A DNA stretch of 39,909 bases, taken from a virus. Shown here one piece after another: positions 1-39,909 of the stretch (position 1 is the stretch's first letter; each line of letters opens with the position of its first letter). The DNA lies in UHGV virus genome UHGV-1354231; one strand, given 5' to 3'. A program made the position numbers and the translations under genes. The notes under the pieces were generated by a model. It did not search any database, was not told the origin of the DNA, and worked only from the letters and a program-made list of their open reading frames with translations.

Positions 1-145
1 AGAGACGGGCTGGTGGTCTGAATGCGGATCTGAAAACGTTTAAACCGGTATTTCGTGTCACAGATGAATATTCCCGTGCCGCGCTGGACAGTTTTTTATC
101 CCGTCATGCCGGGATTCGTGCTTTTTTTGTGGCGTCCGCCAAAAC
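1..145 (+). repeat. Direct repeat: partial copy of the minor tail protein M gene, near-identical to 11845-11988 (one extra T in the T-run at 122-128)
   Basis: Base-by-base comparison of window start with 11845-11988; identity ends after gccaaaac (145/146 vs 11988/11989). Confidence 0.9.
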
Positions 146-542
146 CGCTAAAAAGGATGAAAAAGGTCTTCCTAAAATTCCGCAGCATTTAGGGGCTCAG
201 GGGAAGTACTGGTTCAGGCGAATGGCGGAAGAGCTGAATGCGGAAGGGATCATTTCTCAGCTTGATGCGCGTGCGCTCGAGTTGCTGGTGGAAGCCTACA
301 CCGAATATCGGCATCACTGCGAAACACTCGATGTTGAGGGGTATACCTACCGCACGGAAACGCAGAGCGGTGATGTACTGATTAAGGCGCACCCCGCGGC
401 GGCAATGAAAGCGGATGCCTGGAAGCGGATCCGGGCAATGCTTGCAGAGTTTGGTATGTCACCGGCAAGCCGGGCTAAAGTAAATATCGCCGGACCGGAT
501 GATGTTGATCCGCTGGCGGAGCTTTTAAAAGCGAGAGACTGA
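129..542 (+). CDS. Phage terminase small subunit (P27-like); reading frame is open upstream to window start and in frame with the gpM fragment
   Basis: Translation matches P27-type small terminase as recalled; GTG start at 129 lacks an obvious SD; stop overlaps TerL start. Confidence 0.75.
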   Translation: MASAKTAKKDEKGLPKIPQHLGAQGKYWFRRMAEELNAEGIISQLDARALELLVEAYTEYRHHCETLDVEGYTYRTETQSGDVLIKAHPAAAMKADAWKRIRAMLAEFGMSPASRAKVNIAGPDDVDPLAELLKARD

Positions 543-2299
543 TGGCAAAAGTGGCTGACGGGATCCGCTACGCCGAACGTGTTGTTGCAGGAGAAATTGT
601 TGCTGGCGAATTTGTCCGCCTGGCCTGCCAGCGTTTTCTTGATGATCTGAAGTACGGCGAAGAGCGGGGGATTTATTTCAGTGAACCCCGTGCGCAGCAC
701 ATCCTGAATTTCTACAAATTTGTGCCTCATGTAAAAGGGGCACTGGCAGGCCAGCCCATTGAGTTGATGGACTGGCATGTATTTATCCTCATTAATATTT
801 TTGGTTTTGTCATTCCGCTGGTCAATGAAGAAACCGGGGAAGTTGTCATGCGCAGCGATGGCAGCGGACGTCCGGTGATGGTGCGCCGGTTCCGGACGGC
901 GTACAACGAAGTCGCCCGTAAAAACGCAAAATCAACCCTGTCATCGGGTATCGGCCTGTATATGACGGGGGCAGATAGTGAAGGCGGAGCTGAGGTGTAT
1001 TCAGCCGCAACCACGCGTGACCAGGCCAGAATCGTGTTTGAAGACGCCAAAAATATGGTCAGAAAAGCCCGGTCGACACTCGGGCGGTTGTTTGATTTCA
1101 ACAAGCTGGCGATTTACCAGGAGCAGAGCGCATCAAAATTTGAACCGCTTTCCTCGGATGCAAACAACCTGGACGGTCTGAACATCCACTGCGCCATTAT
1201 TGATGAGCTGCATGCACATAAAACCCGCGACGTGTGGGACGTTCTGGAAACGGCAACCGGTGCCCGTCTGCAGTCCCTGTTATTTGGTATCACCACGGCT
1301 GGCTTTAACAAGGAAGGGATTTGTTACGAGCAGCGTGATTACGCCATCAAGGTATTGCGAGGCTATAACAGCGACGTGGAGGGCGCTGTAAAAGACGACT
1401 CTTACTTTGCGATCATTTACACGCTTGATGAGGGAGATGATCCGTTTGATGAAACGGTCTGGCAGAAAGCGAATCCTGGCCTGGGCATCTGTAAACGCTG
1501 GGATGATCTGCGTCGTCTGGCGAAAAAAGCGAAGGAGCAGGTCTCTGCGCGGGTGAATTTTTTTACCAAACACATGAATGTGTGGGTCACTGCCGAATCT
1601 GCCTGGATGGATATGATTAAGTGGGAGAAGTGCGAATACATTGCTCCACAACATGAGCTGAAAACATATCCCATGTGGGTCGGCGTCGACCTTGCTCATA
1701 AGATTGATATCTGTGCGGCGGCAAAACTCTGGCGAACCGATAACGGACATGTTCATGCTGATTTTAAATTCTGGCTTCCGGAAGGACGGCTGGAACGATG
1801 CTCGCGGCAGCAGGCAGAACTTTACCGGAAGTGGGCGGAGATGGATAAGCTCATCCTGACGGATGGTGATGTTATCGATCATGCTCAGATAAAAAGTGAC
1901 TTACTGGAATGGATTGGCGGTGAAAACCTCAGGGAACTGGGATTTGACCCGTGGAGCGCAATGCAGTTCAGTCTGGCACTGGCTGAAGAAGGGATACCGC
2001 TGGTGGAGGTTCCGCAGACGGTCCGCAATCTGTCAGAGGCCATGAAGGAAACGGAATCACTGGTTTATGCCGGGCGTTTCCATCACAGCAATCATCCGGT
2101 CATGAACTGGATGATGTCTAACGTTACTGTAAAACCGGACAAAAACGACAACATCTTCCCGAATAAATCCACGCCGGAAGCCAAAATCGACGGCCCTGTT
2201 GCGCTTTTTACAGCCATGAGCCGCTTTCTGGTAAATGGCGGGGGCGTGAATGACTTTCTGTCCACGCTTGATCCTGATGAGGACCTGTTAATTCTGTGA
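542..2299 (+). CDS. Phage terminase large subunit (HK97-like, Terminase_1 type)
   Basis: 585-aa ORF directly after TerS; ATPase and nuclease-type motifs; synteny with portal. Confidence 0.9.
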   Translation: MAKVADGIRYAERVVAGEIVAGEFVRLACQRFLDDLKYGEERGIYFSEPRAQHILNFYKFVPHVKGALAGQPIELMDWHVFILINIFGFVIPLVNEETGEVVMRSDGSGRPVMVRRFRTAYNEVARKNAKSTLSSGIGLYMTGADSEGGAEVYSAATTRDQARIVFEDAKNMVRKARSTLGRLFDFNKLAIYQEQSASKFEPLSSDANNLDGLNIHCAIIDELHAHKTRDVWDVLETATGARLQSLLFGITTAGFNKEGICYEQRDYAIKVLRGYNSDVEGAVKDDSYFAIIYTLDEGDDPFDETVWQKANPGLGICKRWDDLRRLAKKAKEQVSARVNFFTKHMNVWVTAESAWMDMIKWEKCEYIAPQHELKTYPMWVGVDLAHKIDICAAAKLWRTDNGHVHADFKFWLPEGRLERCSRQQAELYRKWAEMDKLILTDGDVIDHAQIKSDLLEWIGGENLRELGFDPWSAMQFSLALAEEGIPLVEVPQTVRNLSEAMKETESLVYAGRFHHSNHPVMNWMMSNVTVKPDKNDNIFPNKSTPEAKIDGPVALFTAMSRFLVNGGGVNDFLSTLDPDEDLLIL

Positions 2300-2446
2300 A
2301 ACAGCTTATTACTGATATGACCGGGCTGATCGGTTTCGGTTTGCTCACTGCTGGCGTTTATCTGTATGCAGGTCTGCCAGCGTCTCTGATGCTGTCGGGC
2401 TGTTTGTTGCTGCTTTATGCACTGGTGGTGTCCATGAGGAGAAAAC

Positions 2447-3673
2447 ATGCTTCTTGATGCTCTGTTTCGCAGTGAGCCTCTGGAAAATCCCTCGGTTCCG
2501 GTAACCGGAGAGGCCGCTGAGACGGATAATATTTTTGCCCGGGATGTGTATGTCAGTCCGGAAACATCCATGAAGCTGGCTGCTGTCTATGCCTGTATTT
2601 ATGTTATTTCATCCAGTGTGGCTCAGATGCCCCTGCATGTGATGCGAAAAACGAATGAGCATGTTCAGCCGGCACGCGATCATCCGTTGTTCTGGCTCGT
2701 TCATGATGAACCTAATGCCTGGCAGACCAGCTATAAGTGGCGGGAACTGAAGCAGCGTCATGTGCTGGGGTGGGGCAATGGTTATACGTGGGTAAAACGT
2801 AATCGTCGTGGAGAGGTTACCAGCCTTGAATGCTGTATGCCATGGGAAACCACGTTACTTAACACCGGTGGGCGTCATACTTACGGGGTGTATAACGAAG
2901 AGGGTGCATTTGCGGTAAGTCCGGACGACATGATCCATATCAGGGCGCTGGGAAACAATCAGAAAATGGGACTGAGCCCGATCATGCAGCATGCTGAAAC
3001 CATTGGTATGGGAATGAGTGGCCAGCAGTATACCAGCGCCTTTTTTAACGGTAATGCCCGTCCTGCCGGTATTATTTCTGTGAAAAATGAACTGAACGAA
3101 CAAAGCTGGGGCAGGCTTAAAAATATGTGGCAGCGGGCGGTGACAGCGCTTCGCAGCCAGGAAAATAAAACCATGTTGCTGCCTGCGCAACTGGATTACC
3201 GCGCTCTGACAGTTTCTCCGGTGGATGCTCAGATCATTGATATGACCAAGCTGAACCGGTCGATGATTGCCGGGATTTTTAATGTCCCGGCGCACATGAT
3301 TAATGACCTGGAAAAAGCCACATTTTCGAATATTACGCAGCAGGCGATTCAGTTTGTTCGCTACACGATGATGCCCTGGGTTGCGAACTGGGAGCAGGAG
3401 CTTAACCGTCGCCTGTTTACCCGTACAGAACGGGCTGCCGGGTATTACGTTCGTTTCAACCTCACGGGGTTGCTCCGTGGGACCCCACAGGAGCGTGCGC
3501 AGTTCTATCACTTTGCCATTACAGATGGCTGGATGAGTCGGAATGAAGCCAGGGCATTTGAGGATATGAACCCGGTTGACGGTCTGGATGAAATGCTGGT
3601 CAGCGTAAATGCAGCAAATCCGTTGAATAACTTTAAAGATACGAAAGGCAAAGAGGAAAAGAACGATGAATGA
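2447..3673 (+). CDS. Phage portal protein (HK97 family)
   Basis: 408-aa ORF after TerL; GAGGAG SD at 2437-2442; portal-like sequence and synteny. Confidence 0.85.
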   Translation: MLLDALFRSEPLENPSVPVTGEAAETDNIFARDVYVSPETSMKLAAVYACIYVISSSVAQMPLHVMRKTNEHVQPARDHPLFWLVHDEPNAWQTSYKWRELKQRHVLGWGNGYTWVKRNRRGEVTSLECCMPWETTLLNTGGRHTYGVYNEEGAFAVSPDDMIHIRALGNNQKMGLSPIMQHAETIGMGMSGQQYTSAFFNGNARPAGIISVKNELNEQSWGRLKNMWQRAVTALRSQENKTMLLPAQLDYRALTVSPVDAQIIDMTKLNRSMIAGIFNVPAHMINDLEKATFSNITQQAIQFVRYTMMPWVANWEQELNRRLFTRTERAAGYYVRFNLTGLLRGTPQERAQFYHFAITDGWMSRNEARAFEDMNPVDGLDEMLVSVNAANPLNNFKDTKGKEEKNDE

Positions 3674-4265
3674 CCGTGAAACGCGCTGTTACAGCGGGGA
3701 GGTGCGGGCGGAACAATATGATAATGCCCCGACCCACATTCTGGGGTATGGCTCGGTATTTAACAGTCGTTCAGAACCTCTGTGGGGATTTCGTGAAATC
3801 ATCAAGCCGGGGGCTTTTGATGATGTACTGAATGATGATGTACGTGGCTTGTTTAATCATGATCCTAATTTCATTCTCGGACGAAGTTCTGCCGGCACGT
3901 TGTCATTGTCGGTGGATGAACGCGGTTTACGTTATGACATTGTTGCACCGGATACTCCGACTATTTGTGACCTGGTGCTGTCTCCAATGTTGCGTGGTGA
4001 CATTAATCAGTCCTCGTTCGCGTTTCGTGTCGCCCGTGACGGAGAGAGCTGGTATGAAGACGACGAGGGGATTGTTATCCGGGAAATCACGCGCATTTCT
4101 CGTCTGTATGACGTCAGCCCGGTGACATATCCGGCCTATCAGGACGCAGACTCTGGTGTCCGCTCAATGAAAGCCTGGCAGGAAGCGCGGGCGAGTGGTG
4201 CGCTGAAGAAAGCTGTTAACGAACGAATGGCGCGTGAGCGTCTTTTGACCCTTCTTAATGCATAA
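3666..4265 (+). CDS. Prohead maturation protease (HK97 family)
   Basis: 199-aa ORF overlapping portal end; position between portal and major capsid. Confidence 0.8.
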   Translation: MNDRETRCYSGEVRAEQYDNAPTHILGYGSVFNSRSEPLWGFREIIKPGAFDDVLNDDVRGLFNHDPNFILGRSSAGTLSLSVDERGLRYDIVAPDTPTICDLVLSPMLRGDINQSSFAFRVARDGESWYEDDEGIVIREITRISRLYDVSPVTYPAYQDADSGVRSMKAWQEARASGALKKAVNERMARERLLTLLNA

Positions 4266-4279
4266 GGATACTACTGACG

Positions 4280-5497
4280 ATGAAACTTCATGAGATGAAG
4301 CAAAAACGAAACACCATTGCAAAGGATATGCGTGCACTGCATGAAAAAATTGGTGATAACGCATGGACTGATGAGCAACGGGCAGAGTGGAACAGGGCGA
4401 AAGCTGAGCTGGATGCGCTGGATGAGCAAATCGCCCGTGAAGAAGAGTTGCGCCGTCAGGATCAGGCATATGTGGATGAGTCCGGGCCGGAAGAGCGCCA
4501 GAATAATGAGGCGGAGAACGGGAAAAAGGCGGTGGAAGAGAAGCGCGCTGCGGCATTTAACCGTTTTCTGCGTGCCGGATTTGCAGAACTGAATGCTGAA
4601 GAGCGTAATCTGATGCGTGAACTGCGGGCTCAGAGTGTAACAACGGATTCTCAGGGCGGATATACGGTGCCCACGCAGATGCGTAACAAAATCATTGACA
4701 CCATGAAGGCTTATGGCGGGATTGCCAGTGTGGCGCAACTTCTGACCACATCAACCGGGCAGGATATCACCTGGTCAACGTCTGATGGCACGACTGAAGA
4801 GGGCGAACTGCTGGCGGAAAATACAGCCGCAACGGAACAGGATGTGACGTTCGGGACCGCTATTCTGGGGGCTAAAAAGCTGTCATCAAAAATAATTCGT
4901 GTGTCCAATGAGCTGCTCCAGGACAGTGGGGTGGATATTGAATCTTATCTGGCAAACCGTATTGCCCAGCGTATTGGTCGTGGAGAGGCAAAATATCTGG
5001 TTCAGGGGACCGGAACGGGATCACCGTTACAGCCAAAAGGGCTGGCAGCGTCGGTGACGGGAACCATCCAGACTGCAGCCTCTGCCGCTTTCACCTGGAA
5101 AGAAATGAATGCCCTGAAACATGCCATTGATCCGGCATATCGTGGTGGGCCGAAATACCGCTGGGCATTCAATGATGCCACATTGCAGACTATTGAAGAG
5201 ATGGAGGATGGGCAGAAACGCCCGTTATGGCTGCCGGATATTGCAGGCGGTACGCCGGCTACTGTGCTGGGGATCCCTTATGTTATTGATCAGGCTATTG
5301 ACGGGATTGGTACCGGAAAAAAATTCATTTTCCTGGGGGATTTCAACCGCTTTATCATTCGCCGCGTTACTTATATGGAACTGAAACGTCTGGTTGAGCG
5401 TTATGCTGAGTTTGATCAGGTGGCATTTCTGGCTTTCCATCGTTTTGACTGTGTGCTGGAAGATGTGGCAGCCATCAAGGCGCTCACTGGCAAATAA
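4280..5497 (+). CDS. Major capsid protein (HK97 fold)
   Basis: 405-aa ORF following protease; strong terminator immediately downstream. Confidence 0.85.
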   Translation: MKLHEMKQKRNTIAKDMRALHEKIGDNAWTDEQRAEWNRAKAELDALDEQIAREEELRRQDQAYVDESGPEERQNNEAENGKKAVEEKRAAAFNRFLRAGFAELNAEERNLMRELRAQSVTTDSQGGYTVPTQMRNKIIDTMKAYGGIASVAQLLTTSTGQDITWSTSDGTTEEGELLAENTAATEQDVTFGTAILGAKKLSSKIIRVSNELLQDSGVDIESYLANRIAQRIGRGEAKYLVQGTGTGSPLQPKGLAASVTGTIQTAASAAFTWKEMNALKHAIDPAYRGGPKYRWAFNDATLQTIEEMEDGQKRPLWLPDIAGGTPATVLGIPYVIDQAIDGIGTGKKFIFLGDFNRFIIRRVTYMELKRLVERYAEFDQVAFLAFHRFDCVLEDVAAIKALTGK

Positions 5498-5518
5498 CCA
5501 CTCGTTGTTCAGTTACAG

Positions 5519-5541
5519 ACCGCGCCGACGCGGTTTTTTTA
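5519..5541 (+). terminator. Rho-independent terminator after the major capsid gene
   Basis: ACCGCG-ccga-CGCGGT stem-loop followed by a 7-T run; a second GC hairpin (5543-5562) abuts the next SD. Confidence 0.6.
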
Positions 5542-5573
5542 TGCCCGCACAGTGTTGCGGGCAGGAGTTTCTG

Positions 5574-5891
5574 ATGGCAGCAATAGTGGAAAAACTCAGG
5601 GCGCAGTGCCGTATTGATACAGATGATGCAACTGATGATGAGTTACTGATGCTGTATTTCCGGGCTGCCTGCCGCAAGGCAGAAAATTTTATCAACCGTA
5701 AGCTTTATGAGGAGACGGTGCCGGAAGGTGATCCTGAAGGGGTGCTTATAGCTGATGATGTTTTGCTGGCGCTCATGTTGCTGGTCGGGCACTGGTACGA
5801 AAACCGGGAAAATTCCTCAGATGTCAGCAAGGCACCAGTCCCGTTTGGTTTTTCTTCTCTGCTGGAGCCTTATCGTTTTATTCCTTTGTAG
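5574..5891 (+). CDS. Head-tail connector protein (gp6-like); start trimmed from ORF 5394 to the ATG at 5574
   Basis: In-frame ATG at 5574 with GCAGGAG SD after the terminator; small acidic protein in the expected position. Confidence 0.65.
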   Translation: MAAIVEKLRAQCRIDTDDATDDELLMLYFRAACRKAENFINRKLYEETVPEGDPEGVLIADDVLLALMLLVGHWYENRENSSDVSKAPVPFGFSSLLEPYRFIPL

Positions 5892-5899
5892 GAGGAGAC

Positions 5900-6238
5900 A
5901 TGCAGGCGGGCAGATTACGTGATCGCGTAATTATTCTGAATGTCACCACCGCCCGCTCTCCGTCAGGGCATCCGGTGGAGACGGTGACGGAGGGAGCTAC
6001 CGTATGGGCAGAAGTTAAGGGTATCAGCGGGAGGGAGATAATCTCAGGCGGAGCAGAAACCGCTCAGGCTACGGTCAGAGTCTGGATGAGATTCCGGCGC
6101 GATGTGACAGCGACTTCACGTCTGAAAGTGCTGACCGGTGCATTTAAAGGGGCCATTCTGGGTATAGAAGGTCCACCAATACCGGATGCACGCGCTACCC
6201 GGCTTGAAATACTCTGCAGCCTGAAGGGGAATGTGTGA
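5900..6238 (+). CDS. Head closure / head-tail adaptor protein
   Basis: 112-aa ORF; synteny in HK97-like head modules. Confidence 0.6.
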   Translation: MQAGRLRDRVIILNVTTARSPSGHPVETVTEGATVWAEVKGISGREIISGGAETAQATVRVWMRFRRDVTATSRLKVLTGAFKGAILGIEGPPIPDARATRLEILCSLKGNV

Positions 6239-6684
6239 TGGATTTCAGTCTTGATTTTTCCGGCCTGGCGGATATTGCACGGGATCTGGAGACGCTCAGC
6301 AGGGCAGAAAACAATAAGGTTCTGCGCGATGCCACCCGTGCCGGTGCTGAAGTTATGCGGGATGCAGTTGTTGAACGTGCGCCGGAGCGAACCGGGAAAC
6401 TGAAGAAAAATGTGGTTGTTCTCACTCAGCGTTCAAAGCGTCGGGGGGAAATTATCTCGGGTGTCCACATTCGCGGACGGAACCTGCGAACCGGAAACAG
6501 TGATAACAGCATGAAAGCCAGCGATCCCCGAAATGCATTTTACTGGCGCTTTGTGGAGCTGGGAACGATAAACATGCCCGCGCATCCATTCATTCGCCCG
6601 GCTTTCGATACGACAGAGGAACTGGCAGCACGGATTGCCATACAGCGAATGAATCAGGCTATTGATGAGGTCTTAAGTAAATGA
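6235..6684 (+). CDS. HK97 gp10-family tail component
   Basis: 149-aa ORF overlapping its neighbours by 4 nt; synteny. Confidence 0.6.
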   Translation: MMDFSLDFSGLADIARDLETLSRAENNKVLRDATRAGAEVMRDAVVERAPERTGKLKKNVVVLTQRSKRRGEIISGVHIRGRNLRTGNSDNSMKASDPRNAFYWRFVELGTINMPAHPFIRPAFDTTEELAARIAIQRMNQAIDEVLSK

Positions 6685-7025
6685 GAGAGGCCACACTGTA
6701 TTCCCTGTTGTCTCAGCTGGCCGGAGGACAGGTTTATCCTTATGTGGTCCCACTGACGGAGGGAAAGCCTGCGGTATCTCCGCCGTGGCTGGTGTTTTCT
6801 GTGGTGTCTGACACGGCATCTGATGTGCTTGATGGGCAGGCTGAATCCAGAATTACCGTGCAGATCGATGTCTGGGCGACAGTACCTGATGACGCAGATA
6901 ATATTCGTGAGCAGGCGCTTGATGCGGTAAGAAAACTGGCACCCTCCGTTATTTCTAAAACGCAGGGTTATGATCCTGACTCCCGTCTGAGCAGAGCCAC
7001 GCTTGAATTTCAGGTAATAGCCTGA
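6681..7025 (+). CDS. Tail completion / neck protein (DUF3168-like)
   Basis: 114-aa ORF immediately upstream of the major tail gene; translationally coupled. Confidence 0.5.
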   Translation: MREATLYSLLSQLAGGQVYPYVVPLTEGKPAVSPPWLVFSVVSDTASDVLDGQAESRITVQIDVWATVPDDADNIREQALDAVRKLAPSVISKTQGYDPDSRLSRATLEFQVIA

Positions 7026-7045
7026 GGTCATTAATGATTTTACCC

Positions 7046-7070
7046 ACCCGCCGCTGGCGGGTTTTTTTAT
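7046..7070 (+). terminator. Rho-independent terminator upstream of the major tail gene
   Basis: ACCCGCC-gct-GGCGGGT hairpin followed by a 7-T run. Confidence 0.6.
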
Positions 7071-7085
7071 TTTCAGGAGACGAGT

Positions 7086-7790
7086 ATGTCCTCTAATTTT
7101 GAGCGTTCGCAACTGACGAAAATTATGATTTCGTCTGCACCGGTAACAGCAGAAACCCTGGATTCTGCCAGCTATCTTGGCCTGAGCTGTACAATCAAAG
7201 AGGTGCAGTTTACCGCAGGACAAAAGCAGGATATTGATGTCACCACGCTGTGTTCTGTTGAGCAGGAAAATATTAACGGTCTTGGTGCCGCGTCAGAGAT
7301 TTCCATGTCAGGCAACTTTTATCTGAATGCTGCCCAGAACGCGTTGCGCAGTGCCTATGACAATGACACCACGTATGGCTTTAAAGTTATTTTTCCGTCA
7401 GGCAACGGATTTACCTTTATGGCAGAGGTGCGTCAGCATACCTGGTCTGCAGGAACCAATGGTGTTGTGGCTGCAACGTTTTCCTTGCGCCTGAAAGGTA
7501 AACCTGTGCTGACGACAGAGCCGCTGAAAGTGAAGGCCGATTTAAAAAGCACGCTGCGGGTTGCTTCCGGAGCGAAACTTGAAATGGCGGTTGAGGCTGC
7601 GGGTGGTGTGCCGCCTTATTCTTATGTCTGGAAGAAAGGTGGTTCTCCTGTTTCCGGACAGACGGCGGCAACGTTCAGTAAGGCATCGGCAGTATCCGGT
7701 GATGCGGGTGCATATACCTGCGAGATTTCTGATTCAGCAAGCCCGGTTAACAAAGTGACCTCCACTTCCTGCACTGTAACCGTCAGTTAA
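7086..7790 (+). CDS. Major tail protein with C-terminal Ig-like domain
   Basis: 234-aa ORF with GGAGA SD; Ig-like C-terminal third as in lambda gpV-type proteins. Confidence 0.8.
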   Translation: MSSNFERSQLTKIMISSAPVTAETLDSASYLGLSCTIKEVQFTAGQKQDIDVTTLCSVEQENINGLGAASEISMSGNFYLNAAQNALRSAYDNDTTYGFKVIFPSGNGFTFMAEVRQHTWSAGTNGVVAATFSLRLKGKPVLTTEPLKVKADLKSTLRVASGAKLEMAVEAAGGVPPYSYVWKKGGSPVSGQTAATFSKASAVSGDAGAYTCEISDSASPVNKVTSTSCTVTVS

Positions 7791-8176
7791 TGAGGATGGA
7801 TGTGATGACTAAAAATATCCGTAATCTGGCACTGGCAACGATGTCGGGGTTTCGCCATAAAACCGTTGATGTGCCTGAATGGGAGGGAGCAACGGTTGTG
7901 TTACGGGAACCTTCTGCAGAAGCCTGGTTGCGCTGGCAGGAGATCGTTAAAGCAAAAGATGATGAGACACCGTTATCCGTTGCGGAGCGCGCCCGCCGAA
8001 ATCTGGAGGCAGATGTTGAACTGTTCATTGATGTTCTGTGTGATACCGGACTGCAACCCGTATTTTCAGAGGATGATCGTGAACAGGTGATTGCCGTGTA
8101 TGGCCCGGTGCATGCGCGGCTTCTTCGGCAGTCTCTGGAACTGATCAGTGATGCCGGCGAGGTTAAAAAAAAGTAG
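7790..8176 (+). CDS. Tail assembly chaperone (lambda gpG analogue)
   Basis: 128-aa ORF between major tail and tape measure genes; ends in the slippery tract. Confidence 0.8.
   Translation: MRMDVMTKNIRNLALATMSGFRHKTVDVPEWEGATVVLREPSAEAWLRWQEIVKAKDDETPLSVAERARRNLEADVELFIDVLCDTGLQPVFSEDDREQVIAVYGPVHARLLRQSLELISDAGEVKKK
8167..8173 (+). other. Programmed -1 ribosomal frameshift slippery heptamer A_AAA_AAG (G to G-T fusion)
   Basis: AAAAAAG sits at the last codons of the G-like ORF; the -1 frame is open through 8478. Confidence 0.7.
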
Positions 8177-32128: not shown

Positions 32129-32402
32129 CCTGCAACTTGCCGTTAAAGGTGAATACTTCGATGCCATGATTCGAGGAGAGAAAACGGAAGAGTATCGCCT
32201 GTGTAATGACTACTGGAAAAAGCGCCTCGTTAACCGTAAGTATGACCGCCTGATTATCACAAAGGGATATCCGAAGCGCGACGACTTCAGTCGAAGAATT
32301 GACGTCCCGTATGAAGGGTATGAAATCAAGACAATCACACATCCGCACTTCGGCGATAAACCGGTAAAGGTGTACGCGATAAAGGTGAATATTGATGGCT
32401 AA
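32121..32402 (+). CDS. ASCH / DUF3850-like small protein
   Basis: 93-aa ORF; N-terminal GEYFDAMIRGEKTEEYRLCND pattern resembles ASCH-like PUA fold proteins as recalled. Confidence 0.45.
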   Translation: MANLQLAVKGEYFDAMIRGEKTEEYRLCNDYWKKRLVNRKYDRLIITKGYPKRDDFSRRIDVPYEGYEIKTITHPHFGDKPVKVYAIKVNIDG

Positions 32403-32733
32403 ATCAGCAGCAGAGCGCAAAGCCGCTCAGAGAGCCAGACAAGCTGAATCCGGTGTACGTAAGCTGGAGATTGTGCTTGATGCTCAGGAAATTGAAATGC
32501 TGGAGCGGAACTGCGCCGCCCGGCGCCCTGGTCGAGATCCCTATGAAATGGCCGAGTACATCGCGCTGCTGATCCGCCAGGATGATGCCCGGGTGCGCGG
32601 GCGTATAAAATCGATCAGCAGAAAACGTTGCGGTAAGTGCGGCGAGAGAGTTCCAGTTAATTCATGCCCGTGTAATGGTGACTCGCAATGCTGGGTGACT
32701 AAAGGCTGGCATGAAACGAAATTAATAGTGTGA
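32392..32733 (+). CDS. Hypothetical basic protein with C-terminal zinc-ribbon-like Cys cluster (candidate late regulator)
   Basis: 113-aa ORF immediately upstream of a terminator and the second terminase genes. Confidence 0.4.
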   Translation: MMAKSAAERKAAQRARQAESGVRKLEIVLDAQEIEMLERNCAARRPGRDPYEMAEYIALLIRQDDARVRGRIKSISRKRCGKCGERVPVNSCPCNGDSQCWVTKGWHETKLIV

Positions 32734-32741
32734 CATGTCAC
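32730..32741. repeat. Perfect 12-bp palindrome GTGACATGTCAC (copy 1)
   Basis: Exact palindrome overlapping the stop codon of the 32392-32733 gene; identical copy at 34996-35007. Confidence 0.85.
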
Positions 32742-32782
32742 GAGTAGATTATGCATGATGAATTTGATGGGTTTTGAATACT

Positions 32783-32808
32783 GCCGCCAACTATGGCGGC
32801 TTTATTTT
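32783..32808 (+). terminator. Rho-independent terminator upstream of the second small terminase
   Basis: GCCGCC-aactat-GGCGGC followed by TTTATTTT. Confidence 0.65.
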
Positions 32809-32815
32809 GCATGGT

Positions 32816-32844
32816 ACTATTACCACAACGGTAACTATTACCAC
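32816..32844 (+). repeat. Direct repeat ACTATTACCAC x2 (18-bp period) upstream of the second small terminase
   Basis: Copies at 32816-32826 and 32834-32844. Confidence 0.7.
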
Positions 32845-32851
32845 GGTGGTT

Positions 32852-33292
32852 ATGATGCCTGCTGAACCTAAAACCTATAAACGCAAATCAACGCAATTTA
32901 AGCCACTAACAGCAATGCAGGAGGCTTATTGCCAGTCATACATCAAAACGCCTGAAAACCAGACTCAGGCAGCGATTAACGCAGGATTCTCCCCAAATAC
33001 AGCGGCAGTTAAAGCCAGTGTCATGATGCGCGATGAACGCATTCAAAAACGGATTGCCGAGTTGATGGAGGAGCGCAACAAACGAATGCGCGTCAGTGCT
33101 GATTACGTTCTCATGCGCCTGGTGGAGATCGACCAGATGGACGTGATCGACATCCTCAACGACGATGGGAGCCTTAAACCAATCCGTGAGTGGCCGAAAA
33201 TCTGGCGCACTACGCTTAGTGGCTTTGATCTGTCATCGACCATCATGAACATGAACGAGGATTCGATAGAGACAATCCTACAAAAAAATTAA
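32852..33292 (+). CDS. Terminase small subunit of the second packaging module; probably truncated by a frameshift in an A7 tract
   Basis: HTH-like segment typical of small terminases; start taken at ATGATG 32852 after the terminator rather than ORF start 32774. Confidence 0.6.
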
Positions 33293-33445
33293 ATGGCCTG
33301 ACAAGGTGAAGAACCTTGAGCTGATTGGTAAGCATGTTGATGTCAACGCGTTCAAAGAACGTCTGGATGTTAATGTGAATGTGACAATTGCTGATCGCAT
33401 AGCAGCAGCCAGGAAGCGACTCAAAGAACGTCAGGATGGTAATCA

Positions 33446-34921
33446 GTGACAGATACAGCGTTATCTCCTGAAGAGCAGTTGATCGAGGATATTGCAGGGT
33501 TCACTCACGATCCGCTTGGCTATGCCCTCTATGCGTTCCCGTGGGGGGAAGAGGGGACTGAACTGGCACATGCTACCGGCCCACGTCAGTGGCAGGCTGA
33601 TGCGTTCCGAGAGATACGTGATCACCTGCAGAATCCAGAGACGCGCTATCAGCCGCTTATGCTGGCACGTGCTTCGGGTCACGGTATTGGTAAATCCGCA
33701 TTCATCTCAATGCTGATCAACTGGGGCATGTCCACTTGCGAGGATTGTAAGGTCGTGGTGACCGCCAACACCGACAACCAGCTACGAACGAAGACCTGGC
33801 CGGAAATTATCAAGTGGTCGAACCTTGCTATCACGAAAGACTGGTTTACCTGTACCGCTACCGCGATGTACAGCAATGACCCAGGGCACGACAAGCGATG
33901 GCGGGCTGACGCAATACCCTGGTCTGAGCACAACACTGAGGCATTCGCCGGACTACACAACGAGCGCAAACGCATCATCGTGGTATTCGATGAAGCGTCG
34001 AACATTGCCGATCTGGTGTGGGAGGTAGCAGAGGGTGCGCTGACGGACGAAGACACCGAAATCATCTGGGTGGCGTTCGGGAACCCGACGCGTAACACCG
34101 GGCGTTTCCGTGAATGTTTCCGCAAGTACAAACACCGCTGGAAGTGTGCGCAGATTGACAGCCGGACGGTGGAAGGCACTAACAAACAGCAGTTGCAGAA
34201 ATGGGTTGATGACTACGGGGAAGACAGCGACTTCGTTAAAATCCGTGTGCGCGGCATATTCCCTGATGCATCTGAATTGCAGTTTATCCCTACCGGTCTT
34301 ACTGACGAGGCAATGAAACGGGTGGTAACCGCTGCGCAGGTTGCACATGCTCCGGTGATAATCGGTGTTGACCCGGCATATTCAGGCGTTGATGACGCGG
34401 TGATATACCTGCGGCAGGGGCTACACAGTAAGGTGCTGTGGACTGGCAACAAGACTACCGACGATCTGATTATGGCGAAGCGTATCGCTGATTTTGAAGA
34501 CCTGTATCAGGCTGACGCAGTGTTCATCGACTTTGGTTACGGTACCGGTCTGAAGTCAATCGGTGACGGTTGGGGGCGCACATGGCAACTTGTTCCGTTC
34601 GGTGGCGCGTCTACTGACCCGCAGATGCTCAACAAGCGTGGGGAGATGTTCAACTCATGCAAGACATGGCTGAGGCTGGGCGGGATGCTTGATGACCAGG
34701 AAACAGCGGACGACCTGTCGGCGGCAGAGTACAAAGTTCGAGTGGACGGTAAAATCGTTATCGAACCGAAGGAAGATATCAAGGAGCGGCTTGGGCGTTC
34801 GCCGGGTAAAGGCGATGCGCTATTGCTGACGTTTGCTTTCCCTGTGTCGAAGCGTCTGCGAATTCCAGGTCAGCAGAACCAGCAAGGCAAGGCCATTACA
34901 GATTACGATCCCTATGCTTAA
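33446..34921 (+). CDS. Terminase large subunit (second packaging module)
   Basis: 491 aa; Walker A-like GHGIGKS, Walker B-like VVFDEAS, C-terminal RNaseH-like nuclease region. Confidence 0.85.
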
Positions 34922-34971
34922 TCCGCTGGTGGGGATAATGTCGTTGATATCCTCTGGTGAGGATAAAACAA

Positions 34972-34998
34972 AGCCAGCTCATAGGCTGGCTGTTTGTG
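34972..34998. terminator. Hairpin between convergent genes (possible bidirectional terminator)
   Basis: GCCAGC-tcatag-GCTGGC flanked by T-rich sequence on the + strand and A-rich upstream; followed by the palindrome. Confidence 0.5.
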
Positions 34999-35007
34999 AC
35001 ATGTCAC
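34996..35007. repeat. Perfect 12-bp palindrome GTGACATGTCAC (copy 2)
   Basis: Identical to copy 1; position fixed using ORF 34957..35148 as coordinate anchor. Confidence 0.85.
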
Positions 35008-35011
35008 GGTG

Positions 35012-35367
35012 TTATTGCTCGCTTAACTTCTGCTTCAGCAAGTAACCTTCAAGCATCCAGATTTTGTTTACAGCATTCTGCCTGGCAATCTTCCGACCAA
35101 TTTCTGCATCAAAGTTTTCCGGGCTTGCACATGCGCTCTCTCCGGTGACGGTGAAGCCATTCTTCAGCACCAGTACGCAGAAAGTAAGGAGGTCTGTAGA
35201 TTTATGCGCTGTCCACGTATCGCCAACGCCCATATTGGCAGCACGAATGCCGTCATAAGCAGTAAAGAAATGCTCTTCAAGAATGATGCTTTCGATATAT
35301 TGAGGCGTAACTCGCGGAGCGGTTTTGCCTTTCTCAACGATTCTTTTTCGATTTGCTGGTCGTTCAT
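35012..35367 (-). pseudogene. Unknown moron gene with a good start at 35367 (frame A, 67 aa) running into a longer open frame ending at 35012; apparently frame-disrupted
   Basis: GGTGAG SD before ATG 35367; second frame open for ~115 codons but its first ATG (35233) has no SD. Confidence 0.35.
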
Positions 35368-35566
35368 AATCTCACCTTAAAAAAAATGCCCGTCGAACCG
35401 GGCGAACTGGAAGCAATGAGTTATGCCTTCCGTGGCTGTACGGGTTTACAGCATGAAGTCATCGCAATGGCGTCCTGCTGTAAAAAGGGCGGTGATAGTC
35501 CTTCAAGGGAAACTGTCACCGCCAAGCACCTGGAACTTCTGGCATCACGGTCCTTAGGCGTGATTC

Positions 35567-35644
35567 TGGCGTGGCATGCAGGATTCGAACCTGACAACCA
35601 ACCGCTTAGAAGGCGGTTGCTCTGTCCAACTGAGCTAATGCCAC
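35567..35644 (-). tRNA. tRNA-Arg (anticodon UCU), phage-borne; T-stem reads with a one-base bulge
   Basis: Hand-folded cloverleaf: acceptor GTGGCAT/ATGCCAC, anticodon arm ACCGC-CTTCTAA-GCGGT, T-loop TTCGAAT, 3' GCCA; resembles argU as recalled. Confidence 0.7.
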
Positions 35645-36072
35645 AACGCTGAGAGCACTTAGCCTGTTAAGGCGCCTACACTTTGTCGCGGCTCCATAAA
35701 TGCTCTCATCGTTGTACCCTCGTCTCTTCCGAGGCGTCACACCGAATCGCCGGGATGGTGAATCCCCGTGCGCGGAATAAAACCGCTCGACTTGCACATT
35801 CCGGCTACCTGGTTCGTTTGCCCGAGCAAGGGAGGGTACCCCTTAAACGTATCCAGACCGCTATCGGCGCATGTGCCATACGCCGTACTGCTCAAAATAA
35901 AAGCTCACTCCACCTGTTCAATTTAACGACAAGCCAGTCAGGTTAATAACCGGAATGAACTCTTTGCCTACCTGAAAGGTAATAACTCGTGCGTTAAATG
36001 TCAATTATCTACGATAAATAAATCATATGTGGTTAAATTGGTAATAATTTAATTGCGTACGGAGTCATTGAT

Positions 36073-36279
36073 ATGTGCATGGGTAGCTCACCATCAGTGC
36101 CTGCAACACCAGAAGTTCAGGCAGCACCACAGGAGCAGGATGCCGCCGTTGTTGATGCCCGCGACGAAGAAACACGTCGCCGTCGCGCTGCTGCTGGTCG
36201 TAGTTCTACGCTGCTTACCGGTTCTCAGGGCGACACATCAACCGCTAATACCAGCGGTAAAACGCTACTTGGTCAGTAA
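36073..36279 (+). CDS. Hypothetical 68-aa protein upstream of the portal
   Basis: ORF with GGAG-like SD; Ala/Thr/Gln-rich low-complexity sequence. Confidence 0.3.
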   Translation: MCMGSSPSVPATPEVQAAPQEQDAAVVDARDEETRRRRAAAGRSSTLLTGSQGDTSTANTSGKTLLGQ

Positions 36280-36293
36280 CCGGAGTCATTGAA

Positions 36294-37973
36294 ATGGCGG
36301 AAACAACTAAAGAGCGATTGAACAAACAGTTCGCACAACTTGAAAGCGAGCGTCAGTCGTTCGAGCCGCACTGGCGCGAGTTGAGTGATTACATCAACCC
36401 GCGTGGTTCCCGCTTTCTGACTTCTGAGGTCAACCGTAACGATCGACGCAATACACGCATTATTGATTCGACCGGGACTATGGCGGCGCGCACTCTCGCC
36501 AGCGGCATGATGTCAGGCATCACAAGCCCCGCGCGTCCGTGGTTTCGCCTGGCTACGCCAGATCCTGAAATGATGGATTATGGCCCTGTTAAGTTGTGGC
36601 TTGAGGCCGTGCAGAACCGCATGAACGATATGTTCAATAAGTCGAATCTCTATCAGTCGCTGCCGCAGTTATATGGAAGCCTCGGCACATACAGCACCGG
36701 TGCAATGGCGGTACTGGAGGATGATGAGGACATCATTCGCACAATGCCATTCCCGATAGGCAGTTACTACCTAGCTAACTCACCTCGTGGCAGTGTGGAC
36801 ACCTGTTTTCGCAAGTTCTCTATGACTGTTCGTCAGCTTGTTCAGGAGTTCGGGCTAAATAACGTCAGCGAATCCGTAAAAAGCATGTGGGAAAGCGGCA
36901 CCTACGAGAAGTGGATTGAAGTGATGCATTCGGTTTACCCGAACATTGACCGCGATACATCGAAGCTGGATAGCAAGAACAAGCCATTCAAATCGGTTTA
37001 TTACGAGGTTGGTGGCGATAACGACAAGTTGTTGCGTGAGTCCGGATTCGATGAGTTTCCAATTATGGCTCCGCGCTGGGAAGTTAACGGCGAAGATGTT
37101 TATGGATCATCATGCCCGGGTATGCTGGCGCTTGGACCTGTTAAGGCATTGCAGCTTCTCCAGAAGCGCAAGTCGCAGTTGATTGATAAAGCCACCAATC
37201 CGCCGATGATTGCTCCGACTTCCCTCAAGAATCAGCGTGCCTCCCTTCTTCCTGGCGACATCACGTATATCGATCAGATTACTGGTCAGGATAGTTTCAG
37301 GCCTGCTTATCTGGTTAACCCCAGTACAGCAGATTTGGTGGCAGACATTCAGGACACTCGTCAAATCATTAACAGCGCCTACTTTGTCGATCTGTTCATG
37401 ATGTTGCAGAACATCAATACCCGCTCGATGCCTGTTGAAGCGGTGATCGAAATGAAAGAAGAAAAACTTCTGATGTTGGGGCCGGTTCTGGAGCGTCTGA
37501 ACGACGAATGTCTTAATCCTCTCATTGACCGCGCTTTCTCGATGATGGTGCGTAAAAACATGCTGCCGCCACCACCTGACGCGATGGAAGGTATGCCCCT
37601 GAAGGTCGAATACATTTCCGTCATGGCTCAGGCGCAGAAGTCTATCGGCCTGTCCAGTCTGGCATCCACGGTCAACTTCATTGGTCAACTTGCGCAAGCG
37701 AAACCAGAAGCTCTCGACAAACTCAACGTTGATCAGGCGATCGATGCATTCGCTGATATGTCCGGAGTGTCTCCAACCGTCATTGTTCCGCAGGAACAGG
37801 TTGAGCAGGCTCGCCAGCAACGGGCACAGCAACAACAGCAGCAACAAATGATGGCGATGGGGATGGCGGCGGCACAGGGTGCCAAGACGCTAAGCGAAGC
37901 TAAAACTTCGGATCCGAGTGTTTTGTCAGCTATGGCGAATGCATTTAGTGGTCAGGGTGGGCAATCACAATGA
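36294..37973 (+). CDS. Portal / head-tail connector protein (podovirus T7-type)
   Basis: 559 aa; Gln-rich C-terminus QQQQQQQMMAMGMAAAQGA resembles the T7 gp8 C-terminus as recalled; followed by scaffold and capsid genes. Confidence 0.75.
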   Translation: MAETTKERLNKQFAQLESERQSFEPHWRELSDYINPRGSRFLTSEVNRNDRRNTRIIDSTGTMAARTLASGMMSGITSPARPWFRLATPDPEMMDYGPVKLWLEAVQNRMNDMFNKSNLYQSLPQLYGSLGTYSTGAMAVLEDDEDIIRTMPFPIGSYYLANSPRGSVDTCFRKFSMTVRQLVQEFGLNNVSESVKSMWESGTYEKWIEVMHSVYPNIDRDTSKLDSKNKPFKSVYYEVGGDNDKLLRESGFDEFPIMAPRWEVNGEDVYGSSCPGMLALGPVKALQLLQKRKSQLIDKATNPPMIAPTSLKNQRASLLPGDITYIDQITGQDSFRPAYLVNPSTADLVADIQDTRQIINSAYFVDLFMMLQNINTRSMPVEAVIEMKEEKLLMLGPVLERLNDECLNPLIDRAFSMMVRKNMLPPPPDAMEGMPLKVEYISVMAQAQKSIGLSSLASTVNFIGQLAQAKPEALDKLNVDQAIDAFADMSGVSPTVIVPQEQVEQARQQRAQQQQQQQMMAMGMAAAQGAKTLSEAKTSDPSVLSAMANAFSGQGGQSQ

Positions 37974-38266
37974 CAGATTACGAAGACGATCAACTGAAAG
38001 AAGAAAACGCCCGTAAGCAACGTGACATGGCACAGCGTGAAATTGATGACATTCGCTTTGTCATGAGCAGTGAACAGGGGCGTCGCGTTGTCTGGTCGGT
38101 GCTGGAGAAAGGCCGGGTGTTTTCCGCTATCTCTCCGATGGATGCTATGGCAATGGCATTTAATGAGGGGCAACGCAATCTGGCGCTGGAACTGTTTCAG
38201 CGCGTTATGGCGCATTGCCCTGAACAGTATTTGAAGATGGCCAAAGAGGCCAGTGAACAGGAGTGA
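37970..38266 (+). CDS. Hypothetical 98-aa head-module protein
   Basis: ATGA overlap with the portal stop. Confidence 0.45.
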   Translation: MTDYEDDQLKEENARKQRDMAQREIDDIRFVMSSEQGRRVVWSVLEKGRVFSAISPMDAMAMAFNEGQRNLALELFQRVMAHCPEQYLKMAKEASEQE

Positions 38267-38964
38267 TCATGAATTTATTTGAGCGTTTGCTGTATCGCCG
38301 TCTTTGCAATGAGCAACCAGTTGATGGCGGAGCAGCTCCGGCTGCGTCAGAACCGTCAGCGCCTGCAGGTGATAACCCTGCTCCAGTTGGTGATCCATCA
38401 CAACTGGAAGGTGATAAGCCACAACCTGTTGCTGATGGCGATAAACCTGCTGATGACAAAAAGCCTGAAAACGATAAGCAGGATGAAAAAAAGGACGGCG
38501 ATAAACCAGAGGGGGCGCCTGAGAAGTACGAGTTTCAGGCTGCCGAAGGCGTAGAGCTGGATACAGAAGCGTTGAAGGAATTCGAGCCGGTGGCGCGAGA
38601 ACTTAACCTGACCAACGAGCAAGCGCAAAAGCTGGTTGATGCTTATCCGAAGATTCTGGCAGGTGTTCAGCAGCGCCAGGCAGAAGCCTGGCAGAAAACA
38701 ACCGAGCAGTGGGCTGCGGATGTAAAAGCTGACAAAGAAATCGGTGGCGACAAGTTGATTTCTAACCTTAGCGCCGCACAGCGTGCGCTTGACCAGTTCG
38801 GGACACCTGAACTCAAAGAATATCTGAACACCACCGGACTGGGTAATCACCCTGATCTGGTCAAAACGTTCGTGAAAATCGGAAAGGCGATGTCTGAAGA
38901 TGGCATGGTCACCGGTGGTAATGAAGGCCAGCGTAGTGCGGCCGAAGTGCTCTATGGCAAATAA
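38263..38964 (+). CDS. Putative scaffolding protein (acidic, Pro/Asp/Lys-rich N-terminal half); likely start at ATG 38269
   Basis: Position between portal and major capsid; AGGAG SD upstream. Confidence 0.5.
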   Translation: MIMNLFERLLYRRLCNEQPVDGGAAPAASEPSAPAGDNPAPVGDPSQLEGDKPQPVADGDKPADDKKPENDKQDEKKDGDKPEGAPEKYEFQAAEGVELDTEALKEFEPVARELNLTNEQAQKLVDAYPKILAGVQQRQAEAWQKTTEQWAADVKADKEIGGDKLISNLSAAQRALDQFGTPELKEYLNTTGLGNHPDLVKTFVKIGKAMSEDGMVTGGNEGQRSAAEVLYGK

Positions 38965-38978
38965 GAGAGGAAATGACA

Positions 38979-39909
38979 ATGGCTGTTAAAGGCTTAACTG
39001 CGCTAACGCTGGCTGACTGGGGTAAGCGCGTCGATCCAAACGGGAAAGTCGATAAGATTATCGAGCTTCTCGGTCAAACTAACCCGATCCTTCAGGATAT
39101 GCCTTTTGTCGAAGGGAACCTTCCTACCGGACACCGAACCACCATTCGTTCTGGTTTACCTTCAGCTACCTGGCGTTTGCTGAACTATGGCGTACAGCCA
39201 AGCAAATCAACCACAGTGCAGGTCACCGATTACGTTGGCATGCTGGAAACCTATGCTGAAGTCGATAAGTCACTGGCTGATCTGAACGGCAATACCGCCG
39301 AATTCCGCCTGTCTGAAGACCGAGCATTTATTGAAGCGATGAATCAGCAGATGGCGCAGACGCTGTTTTATGGTGATTCCAGCGTTAACCCTCAGCAGTT
39401 TATGGGACTGTCCTCCCGCTATTCCAGCCTGTCTGCGGGTAATGCTCAGAACATCATTGATGCTGGTGGCACGGGTACAGATAACACCTCAATCTGGTTA
39501 GTGGTGTGGGGCGAAAACACCGTGCATGGCATCTTCCCGAAAGGGCAGAAGGCTGGCATCCAAATGGAAGATAAAGGCCAGGTGACACTGGAAGATGCTA
39601 ATGGCGGCAAGTACGAAGGCTATCGCACCCATTACAAATGGGATAACGGACTTGCTCTACGTGACTGGCGTTATGTTGTTCGCATTGCAAACATCGATGT
39701 CAGCAATCTTTCAGAACCTTCCTCTGCCGCAAATATTGCGAAGTTGATGGTTAAAGCACTGCATCGCATTCCAAATCGTGGCATGGGTCGCCCGGTGTTC
39801 TACATGAACCGCACTGTAGGCCAGGCTCTTGATCTGCAATCTCTGGAGAAAACATCTCTGGCGATCAGCGTAAAAGAGACAGAAGGCGAGTGGTGGACTT
39901 CATTCCGTG
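38979..39909 (+). CDS. Major capsid protein, 3' end cut off by the window edge
   Basis: ATG at 38979 with GAGAGG SD; frame open to window end (~310 codons); position after scaffold. Confidence 0.65.
   Translation, partial: MAVKGLTALTLADWGKRVDPNGKVDKIIELLGQTNPILQDMPFVEGNLPTGHRTTIRSGLPSATWRLLNYGVQPSKSTTVQVTDYVGMLETYAEVDKSLADLNGNTAEFRLSEDRAFIEAMNQQMAQTLFYGDSSVNPQQFMGLSSRYSSLSAGNAQNIIDAGGTGTDNTSIWLVVWGENTVHGIFPKGQKAGIQMEDKGQVTLEDANGGKYEGYRTHYKWDNGLALRDWRYVVRIANIDVSNLSEPSSAANIAKLMVKALHRIPNRGMGRPVFYMNRTVGQALDLQSLEKTSLAISVKETEGEWWTSFR

Follow-up and report, generated by a model that had tools for sequence, protein, structure and literature searches.

Two groups of temperate Escherichia coli phages lie closest to the DNA described here. 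The first comprises lambdoid prophages at serU, represented by that of E. coli 190693 (NZ_CP048934, 808.5-848.9 kb) and by the related records vB_EcoS-689R5, PhiR49_2 and Evi. The lambdoid phage of E. coli noe1104 is ordered head-tail-attP-int-early-Q-lysis-terS-head, and in both 190693 and noe1104 the Q, lysis and HNH genes are located between the Ea22 genes and the small terminase gene (terS). Tandem arrays of such prophages at serU (polylysogeny) are found in noe1104 and M15. The second group consists of phiV10, TL-2011b and vB_EcoP_ZX5, which are epsilon15-like temperate podophages (Uetakevirus) with the gene order Ea22/DUF551, ASCH, terS, large terminase (terL), gp49, tRNA-Arg, portal, protease and capsid. 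The vB_EcoP_ZX5 genome is 39,565 bp (PMC9782041).

We analyzed UHGV virus genome UHGV-1354231, a stretch of 39,909 nt referred to below as the window. As the original prediction had described, and at about the positions it gave, the window contains two structural modules, each a packaging and head gene set, with a single integration, immunity and replication region (Table 1). It joins, in series, parts of two temperate E. coli phages that are both ordinary and already known separately. Judged by nucleotide alignment, the first piece (about 31 kb, 141-31141) is roughly three quarters of one lambdoid phage in circular order, and the second (about 9 kb, 30849-39909) is a fragment of an ordinary phiV10-like (Uetakevirus) prophage. 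No bacterial DNA is present within the window, and literature searches under the accession or phage names returned nothing relevant.

Table 1. Features of the 39,909-nt window
Feature	Position	Strand	Remarks
Duplicate of internal minor tail (M-like) gene fragment	1-145	+	copies 11845-11988
P27-family small terminase (PF05119)	141-542	+	without first ~81 nt (27 codons); fused in frame to M-gene fragment
Large terminase (PF03354/PF20441)	542-2299	+	Pfam
Portal (PF04860)	2447-3673	+	Pfam
S78 prohead protease	3666-4265	+	Pfam, identical annotated proteins
HK97-type major capsid protein (PF05065)	4280-5497	+	Pfam
Head-tail connectors and lambda-type tail	5574-20904	+	identical proteins, colinear prophages
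Major tail protein	7086-7790	+	followed by chaperones G/T
Tape measure	8519-11752	+	
Tail M/L/K/I	11745-14078	+	
Tail J	14139-17534	+	
Lom	17602-18201	+	
Side tail fibre	18266-20332	+	two small ORFs then reach 20904
attP P arm	20905-21256		
att core, 77 nt	21257-21333		3' part of tRNA-Ser serU; P' arm begins 21334
Tyrosine integrase	21371-22396	-	domain matches
DUF4224 gene, excisionase position	22396-22599	-	
ExoVIII-like exonuclease	22658-25084	-	
Rac/Qin-like early region	25178-29934	both	100% identity to ERR975243_5 over 21304-30710
DUF1482, DicB, YdfC, DUF1391	in 25178-29934	-	
cI-type repressor	26933-27580	-	
Cro	27677-27904	+	
YdaT	27901-28326	+	
Replisome organizer	28392-29468	+	
DUF977	29509-29934	+	
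Lambdoid-type small ORF and ead/Ea22-like genes	29935-30848	+	lambdoid allele persists at 30848
Switch tract, 293 nt	30849-31141	+	identical to lambdoid serU prophages and phiV10-like prophage
Ead_Ea22/DUF551 protein	30869-32128	+	
ASCH-type protein, 93 aa	32121-32402	+	
112-aa protein	32395-32733	+	
phiV10-type small terminase (Terminase_2, PF03592)	32852-33449	+	broken by 1-nt insertion at 33280
phiV10-type large terminase	33446-34921	+	
Gp49-family gene	in 35012-35644	-	1-nt deletion at 35341 breaks frame
tRNA-Arg(TCT)	35567-35644	-	private 1-nt insertion at 35594
T7-type portal (PF12236)	36294-37973	+	
Bbp19-like protein	37970-38266	+	
Protease/scaffold	38263-38964	+	
GP7-type major capsid gene, 5' part	38979-39909 (window end)	+	

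Results

The left module carries HK97-type head genes (P27-family terS, terL, PF04860 portal, S78 protease and PF05065 capsid), identified by Pfam and by identical annotated proteins. These are accompanied by a lambda-type tail series (V, G/T, H, M, L, K, I, J, Lom and stf) assigned from Pfam matches of identical proteins and from RefSeq annotation of colinear prophages. Phage PhiR49_2 matches 97% of positions 1-21000 at 97% identity. The side tail fibre ORF read from an upstream GTG (690 aa) has no exact protein on record, although gene calls may differ there. In both the terS-tail fibre and the int-Ea22 stretches, gene order and content match those of the serU lambdoid prophages, and the att core is the same. 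Relative to these prophages the lambdoid genome is incomplete: about 9.4 kb is missing, from hokD through the Q antiterminator, the lysis cassette, HNH and the terS 5' end, the last being replaced by a tail-gene fragment.

Alignment with the 190693 serU prophage located the attachment site. Window 141-21333 matched the right end of the prophage in a single 21.2-kb alignment (97.8%) extending up to attR, and 21257-31167 matched its left end (99.0%) from attL. The two alignments overlap by the 77-nt core; thus, the P arm-core-P' arm junction is attP. In lysogens, the core match starts inside a tRNA-Ser gene beside mtfA, which we take to be serU, in agreement with the earlier placement of an att at a tRNA-Ser site. 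Matches to 689R5 and 606R7 also start at the core (21257), and the annotation of the matched stretch includes tRNA-Ser. ARAGORN detected no complete tRNA-Ser in the window because only its 3' part is present.

Whereas the serU prophages run from attL to attR, the window is circularly permuted. Its tail-attP-int order is the circular map of one phage and does not require two prophages; this order is that of an excised or replicating genome, or of the middle of a tandem double lysogen. The same attP-type junction, lying between tail-fibre genes and int, is found in the tandem serU arrays, and the P-core-P' junction of the window also occurs in 8 of 5,426 genomes. No virion-derived phage record with this attP in one piece was found. 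The left module, att and int/early region belong to one phage, colinear with the 190693 prophage. This contradicts the proposal of two prophages in tandem at tRNA-Ser and, with it, the view that the left phage had no integrase or immunity genes in sight, as the int/early region past attP is its own.

In the second module, the Terminase_2 terS, terL, PF12236 portal and GP7-type capsid genes stand in phiV10 order at high nucleotide identity, with 31-39.9 kb of the window 97-98% identical to phiV10, TL-2011b and vB_EcoP_ZX5. A prophage in GCA_001292545.1 is 99.89% identical over 30651-39909; int, RecT, repressor, DnaT and P genes of its own precede this region. All 10 genomic contexts of the identical portal protein (10/10) were ordinary phiV10-like. 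In contrast to the complete phages of this group, the window has about 9 kb only, with terS and gp49 frameshifted. The Uetakevirus integrase, repressor and DnaT/P replication genes are absent, and the lambdoid early region stands in their place. Every phiV10-like relative inspected carries its own, different integrase and early genes, and the one phiV10-like prophage whose location was inspected adjoins guaA, not tRNA-Ser. A 73-aa gp49 fragment has no exact protein on record, a result that may reflect different gene calls.

Where the early region gives way to the second module there is no att site but a 293-nt repeat inside the ead/Ea22 genes. Three lambdoid prophages show no difference from the window across 21257-31141 and diverge from 31142. 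The phiV10-like prophage is identical from 30849 onward, private 1-nt indels aside, and differs at 30848 and upstream. On this comparison, the change of parent is placed somewhere inside 30849-31141. This perfect tract sits in about 460 nt that are nearly identical between the two phages, and is bordered by lambdoid-specific bases at 30654, 30659, 30668, 30680 and 30848 and by phiV10-specific bases at 31142, 31144, 31156, 31158 and 31161. Among 80 IMG/VR loci with an Ea22/DUF551 gene, the phiV10 terminase was present in 12 and absent from 68, and none (0/80) had both marker sets together.

The start of the window holds a further junction. Bases 1-127 reproduce 11845-11971 exactly; an extra T then falls in a T-run (122-128, T7 versus T6), and identity resumes to 145. 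The tail-gene fragment (M') meets terS via an AAAAC microhomology (141-145). The terminase 5' end is chimeric, as had been noticed, with window 1-145, the minor-tail gene copy, taking the place of the first ~81 nt of terS. An intact 160-aa terS with HNH upstream was seen in 8 of the 8 contexts shown. The M'-terS junction sequence had no match in viral, genome and metagenome contig collections, and the truncated 146-aa terS had no exact protein on record, with the same reservation about gene calls. A 127-nt exact copy that diverges at base 128 is what a contig start in a k=127 de Bruijn assembly typically looks like, and we count it in favor of an assembly chimera. We also considered position 141 as a physical genome end (cos), since the inverted terS copy of the Evi record seemed to start there. 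This was rejected: the window's own breakpoint forces the boundary, the Evi copy runs about 8 nt further, and position 141 lies within the conserved terS coding region.

Discussion

What is shown is the anatomy of the window, the presence of attP, where the switch falls, and that the join recurs in none of the collections searched. With respect to the join itself, we favor, with some reserve, an assembly chimera of lambdoid and phiV10-like sequence over a new kind of phage. Misassembly, like mosaicism, had been named in the original prediction as an alternative to tandem prophages, the reading it preferred. The assembler would have switched path in the 293-nt tract, which is longer than the reads and the k-mer, and both phages are probably complete in the host or sample.

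Several lines of evidence point to a chimera. Each side of the join matches a separate complete element, and the switch is within a repeat. No complete E. coli genome (0/5,426) covers at least 80% of 17000-39909 or of 28400-33600, and the join is absent from 50,697 phage records and from the viral contigs fetched. In an independent Logan assembly (ERR975243, k=31) of a sample with identical lambdoid DNA, the sequence breaks at each window junction. Contig ERR975243_13, 100% identical to window 4139-20772, starts by arithmetic at window 141. Contig ERR975243_5, 100% identical to 21304-30710, ends at 30710, a single base short of the first k-mer in common with an L006-type sequence that differs at 30680; this end implies that the tract is preceded in that sample by a second context, of phiV10 type. 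The two parts also differ in error profile, which we count in favor of a chimera. The lambdoid part showed no differences over the 26 kb compared, whereas the phiV10-like part after 30848 showed no substitutions and five single-base indels, all private (absent from 13 of 13 relatives). Were the indels random, the chance of all five falling in the last 9.06 kb would be (9.06/39.9)^5, or ~6e-4; the natural comparison with 190693 gave 438 substitutions versus 8 indels.

Other observations count against a chimera. Since a 77-nt core cannot collapse at k=127, the attP junction is real in molecules, and not every odd junction in the window is therefore an artefact. A perfect 293-nt match would also suffice as substrate for homologous recombination of the RecA or Red type, and mosaic phages classically change parent at ead/Ea22 genes. 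The Logan assembly branches at 141, which suggests that the M'-terS junction is also in the reads of at least one sample. That sample need not be the source of the window, as several other genomes have an identical early region. Finally, a defective prophage in genuine decay could account for the five indels.

The alternative that survives best, possible though unlikely, is a real homologous recombinant, formed when a cell contained both a phiV10-like prophage and a lambdoid serU phage and these crossed over in their common ead/Ea22 tract. The product would run from lambdoid int, immunity and replication genes into Uetakevirus late genes; it would follow a further lambdoid copy within a tandem array or a concatemer, which would account for the attP-type junction. 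The perfect tract and its near-identical surroundings are common to both phages, Ea22-like genes occur in both phage types (the 12 and 68 IMG/VR loci above), and tandem lambdoid prophages at serU are known in complete genomes, including noe1104 and M15. Furthermore, late genes directly follow early-right genes in phiV10-like phages, which makes the hybrid gene order plausible. P22-type mosaics combine a lambdoid early region with a podophage late region, and the right-hand unit would share this general architecture if the join were real; unlike these mosaics, the window hybrid is hypothetical as a phage, and it carries a broken small terminase. Tandem lysogeny at serU could explain the attP-type junction, but as lambdoid copies rather than lambdoid plus phiV10-like: in the arrays, the downstream copy is a complete lambdoid phage (Q and lysis genes; in noe1104 also terS and head), not a podophage module. 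A recombinant would also require three unusual junctions in 40 kb (M'-terS, attP and the Ea22 switch), has no second occurrence in any collection searched, and carries frameshifts in the phiV10-type terS and gp49. Its P' arm from one phage and far att arm from the other would make excision impossible with either integrase, and the contig-end signature and unequal error profile better match a mixture. We consider it rather unlikely that the join is physical, with a recent Ea22 crossover having yielded a hybrid temperate phage or prophage that drives a Uetakevirus late module from a serU-targeting lambdoid module for integration, immunity and replication, in tandem with a lambdoid prophage.

An improbable variant is that the window derives from a long-read or hybrid chromosome assembly and is physically real, its 1-nt indels being residual long-read errors in unpolishable regions. 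All six anomalies (the T-run at 122-128 and the five indels) are single-base indels, typical of long-read consensus error, and the tandem arrays of noe1104 and M15 come from a chromosome-level assembly and a complete genome, respectively. However, the errors are unevenly spread between the 26 kb of lambdoid sequence compared and the last 9 kb, a short-read graph is indicated by the exact 127-nt overlap at the window start, and the arrangement is in no complete genome of the collection. Independent tandem prophages at tRNA-Ser, the left one defective and the early region owned by the phage with the T7-type portal, are very improbable: the att core is the tRNA-Ser 3' part, arrays do occur at serU and the left terS is truncated, but int and the early genes are 99-100% identical to lambdoid prophages with the left-type head and tail (190693, noe1104), and this reading is contradicted by the 190693 colinearity, the att-less repeat boundary and the separate integrase and early genes of the phiV10-like relatives. 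A single functional phage with two structural sets was rejected, since the window has no Q or lysis genes and no intact terS, each of its two small terminase genes being damaged; we agree with the original prediction that the modules are unrelated and could not both serve one functional phage.

Collectively, the assembly chimera that we favor and a recombinant lead to the same biological assessment: both parent phage types are already known, and the biology is ordinary either way. The window cautions that a 293-nt repeat common to co-resident prophages can fake one early region serving two head and packaging sets. Were the join real, it would be a case, dated and resolved to the base, of a lambdoid siphophage and a Uetakevirus podophage exchanging DNA at the ead/Ea22 mosaic boundary, a useful if unsurprising example.

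Results

As predicted originally, two unrelated packaging and head modules lie in the window with a single early region between them; a list of the ORFs, their Pfam matches and alignments at the nucleotide level confirmed this. Over window 1-21000 Escherichia phage PhiR49_2 showed 97% identity over 97%, and vB_EcoS-689R5 and Evi were also similar. The diverged 41-nt units of the side tail fibre gene look like ordinary repetitive fibre-shaft coding sequence.

Features of the window and their positions
Feature	Position	Strand	Content
First module	141-20904		P27-family small terminase, large terminase, PF04860 portal, S78 protease, HK97-type capsid protein (Pfam)
First module, tail			Lambda-type series through J, Lom and side tail fibre
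Repeats in side tail fibre gene	18677-18990		41-nt unit, five diverged copies
Between modules			Tyrosine integrase, DUF4224 gene, ExoVIII-like exonuclease, DicB, YdfC, cI-type repressor, Cro, YdaT, replisome organizer, DUF977, ead/Ea22-like genes
Integrase	21371-22396	minus	Intact 341-aa ORF
Ea22/DUF551 gene	30869-32128		419-aa protein
Second module	from ~32.8 kb		Terminase_2 small terminase, large terminase, T7-type PF12236 portal, protease, start of GP7-type capsid gene
tRNA-Arg(TCT)	second module	minus
Single-base indel	33280		terS
Single-base indel	35341		gp49
Single-base indel	35379
Single-base indel	35594		tRNA
Single-base indel	35677

Comparison with the serU prophage of E. coli 190693 accounted for both sides of the att site. 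Its terS-to-attR side aligned to window 141-21333 in a single 21.2-kb alignment (97.8%), and its attL-to-Ea22 side matched 21257-31167 (99.0%). These alignments overlap by 77 nt at 21257-21333, the att core; positions 20905-21370 therefore comprise P arm, core and P' arm, that is, an attP. By this colinearity, the tail, int, immunity and replication genes make up a single lambdoid genome in circular order. The order tail-attP-int is that of the lambda vegetative map, a normal circular map, and not of two phages. The preferred explanation in the original prediction, two prophages in tandem at tRNA-Ser with a defective phage on the left and the early region assigned to the one on the right, was thus not supported; mosaicism and misassembly, which it had named as alternatives, are taken up below. 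In many E. coli chromosomes the int-side match begins midway through a tRNA-Ser beside mtfA, at window 21257. The 5' half of that tRNA is absent from the window, in which ARAGORN found no tRNA-Ser. The integrase ORF is intact in several draft genomes as well; RefSeq marks the same gene as 'frameshifted' (1,051 nt) in Nord1, noe1104, 190693 and M15, a label that may stem from the annotation model and not from true decay.

In chromosomes a tandem lysogen can also give the tail-attP-int order. E. coli noe1104 carries the lambdoid phage as head-tail-attP-int-early-Q-lysis-terS-head, M15 has a similar tandem array, and a contiguous attP-type junction occurred in 8 of 5,426 complete genomes. Other elements also appear to occupy serU. 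Six complete genomes (e.g. NZ_CP027355.1, 1263380-1264072) matched 92% of the attP-type junction and have a 'capsid protein' gene beside the integrase; a different element sharing most of the P arm appears to lie there in tandem. A lambdoid prophage in OZ038988.1 is 99.95% identical to window 4139-21326 and is followed, past the att core (locus 17459-22980), by DUF6387, AlpA, H-NS-like and DUF4756 genes and a weak RepL match, which look like another integrative element or satellite at the same site.

The second module is a piece of an ordinary phiV10-like prophage, with 97-98% identity to phiV10, TL-2011b, vB_EcoP_ZX5 and their relatives; ZX5 is described as a 39.6-kb temperate Uetakevirus (PMC9782041). 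All ten contexts of the identical portal protein were ordinary phiV10-like prophages, and a complete example in NZ_OZ039848 adjoins guaA. GCA_001292545.1 and the Logan assembly of ERR975247 both encode exact copies of the 419-aa Ea22/DUF551 protein, and at these loci the gene belongs to a normal phiV10-like prophage that has an integrase, RecT, repressor, DnaT and P of its own. Identity between the window and the GCA_001292545.1 prophage is 99.89% from 30651 to the window end. The five single-base indels of this part were seen at none of 13 related loci, and they break the phiV10-type terS and gp49 genes. Four of the five lie within 340 nt. The indel in tRNA-Arg(TCT) adds one base in the variable-loop/T-stem region, and ARAGORN still calls the tRNA, at 78 nt versus 77 nt.

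The change of parent could be placed within the ead/Ea22 gene. Three lambdoid serU prophages were identical to the window throughout 21257-31141, with earliest mismatches at 31142, 31144, 31156, 31158 and 31161. The phiV10-like prophage differs at 30654, 30659, 30668, 30680 and 30848; from 30849 onward it matches the window exactly, indels aside. Because these mismatch sets flank it, the 293-nt tract 30849-31141 must contain the switch; this tract holds neither an att site nor unique junction sequence. The ead/Ea22 region is well known as a mosaic boundary. Relatives of the switch-tract gene occur in both phage types, 12 of 80 IMG/VR loci having a phiV10-type terminase and 68 lacking it.

At the left end, window 1-145 copies minor tail gene positions 11845-11988 with one extra T. 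This fragment meets terS in frame at 141-145 through AAAAC microhomology, and the fusion deletes the first 27 codons of terS. The fragment has seven T's versus six in the resident gene, just 13 nt from the terS junction; the extra T may have arisen by misreading of a chimeric tip or by real slippage where a rearrangement was joined. In the eight contexts displayed for the identical large terminase the order was always the normal one of HNH, 160-aa terS and terL, and the fusion sequence was not found in three public collections scanned. The fusion may come from a chimeric read that forms the tip of a contig, or it may mark where an 11.85-kb tandem duplication or circle (141 to 11988) was joined. 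In phage Evi (LR597642) about 125 nt of terS 5' coding sequence are duplicated in inverted orientation just upstream of terS (2755-2879 versus 3001-3125), and the copy carries, on the other strand, the annotation of a second 'terminase small subunit'; an assembly fold-back is one possible cause and a real inverted repeat another.

Discussion

We consider the join between the two parts to be, on balance, an assembly chimera. No complete E. coli genome reached 80% coverage of window 17000-39909 or of 28400-33600, no phage record covered both sides of the join, and none of 80 IMG/VR loci had both marker sets. Logan contigs of ERR975243 (k=31) matched window 4139-20772 and 21304-30710 at 100% identity. 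The second contig starts at the first k-mer beyond the att core and ends one base short of the first 31-mer common with phiV10-type sequence, which differs at 30680. Upstream of the shared tract the sample therefore appears to carry another sequence, of phiV10 type, as expected from two complete prophages. The first contig (20,632 nt) aligns from its position 3999 to its end and, assuming no indel in the uncompared part, starts at window 141. It stops at 20772 (in the stretch 20743-20773), within the last small ORF of the tail-fibre region, so the sample must carry another sequence sharing or diverging there; this is probably a further lambdoid prophage whose tail-fibre accessory gene is related.

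The window start and the error profiles bear on the same question. Over its first 127 nt the window copies 11845-11971 exactly, and the match is lost at base 128. Contigs from a k=127 de Bruijn graph usually start in this way; had the window been cut arbitrarily, the exact distance would be coincidence. The lambdoid part showed no differences from independent assemblies over 26 kb, and after 30848 the phiV10-like part has five single-base indels and no substitutions. In natural divergence of these phages substitutions dominate (438 versus 8 indels in one comparison). The unequal profiles suggest that the DNA populations behind the two parts differed in depth or quality.

A real recombinant is a less probable source of the join, to which we give about one chance in four. 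Recombination could also make good use of an identical tract of 293 nt. Two junctions argue against artefact: that at attP must exist in real molecules because a 77-nt core is not collapsible at k=127, and an independent assembly branches at 141, which suggests that the tail gene-terS fusion was present in reads too. Readings other than chimera and recombinant take the small remainder. Each component, at 97-100% identity, is a close member of a well-known group of E. coli temperate phages, and the join is ordinary biology either way, artefact or recombinant.
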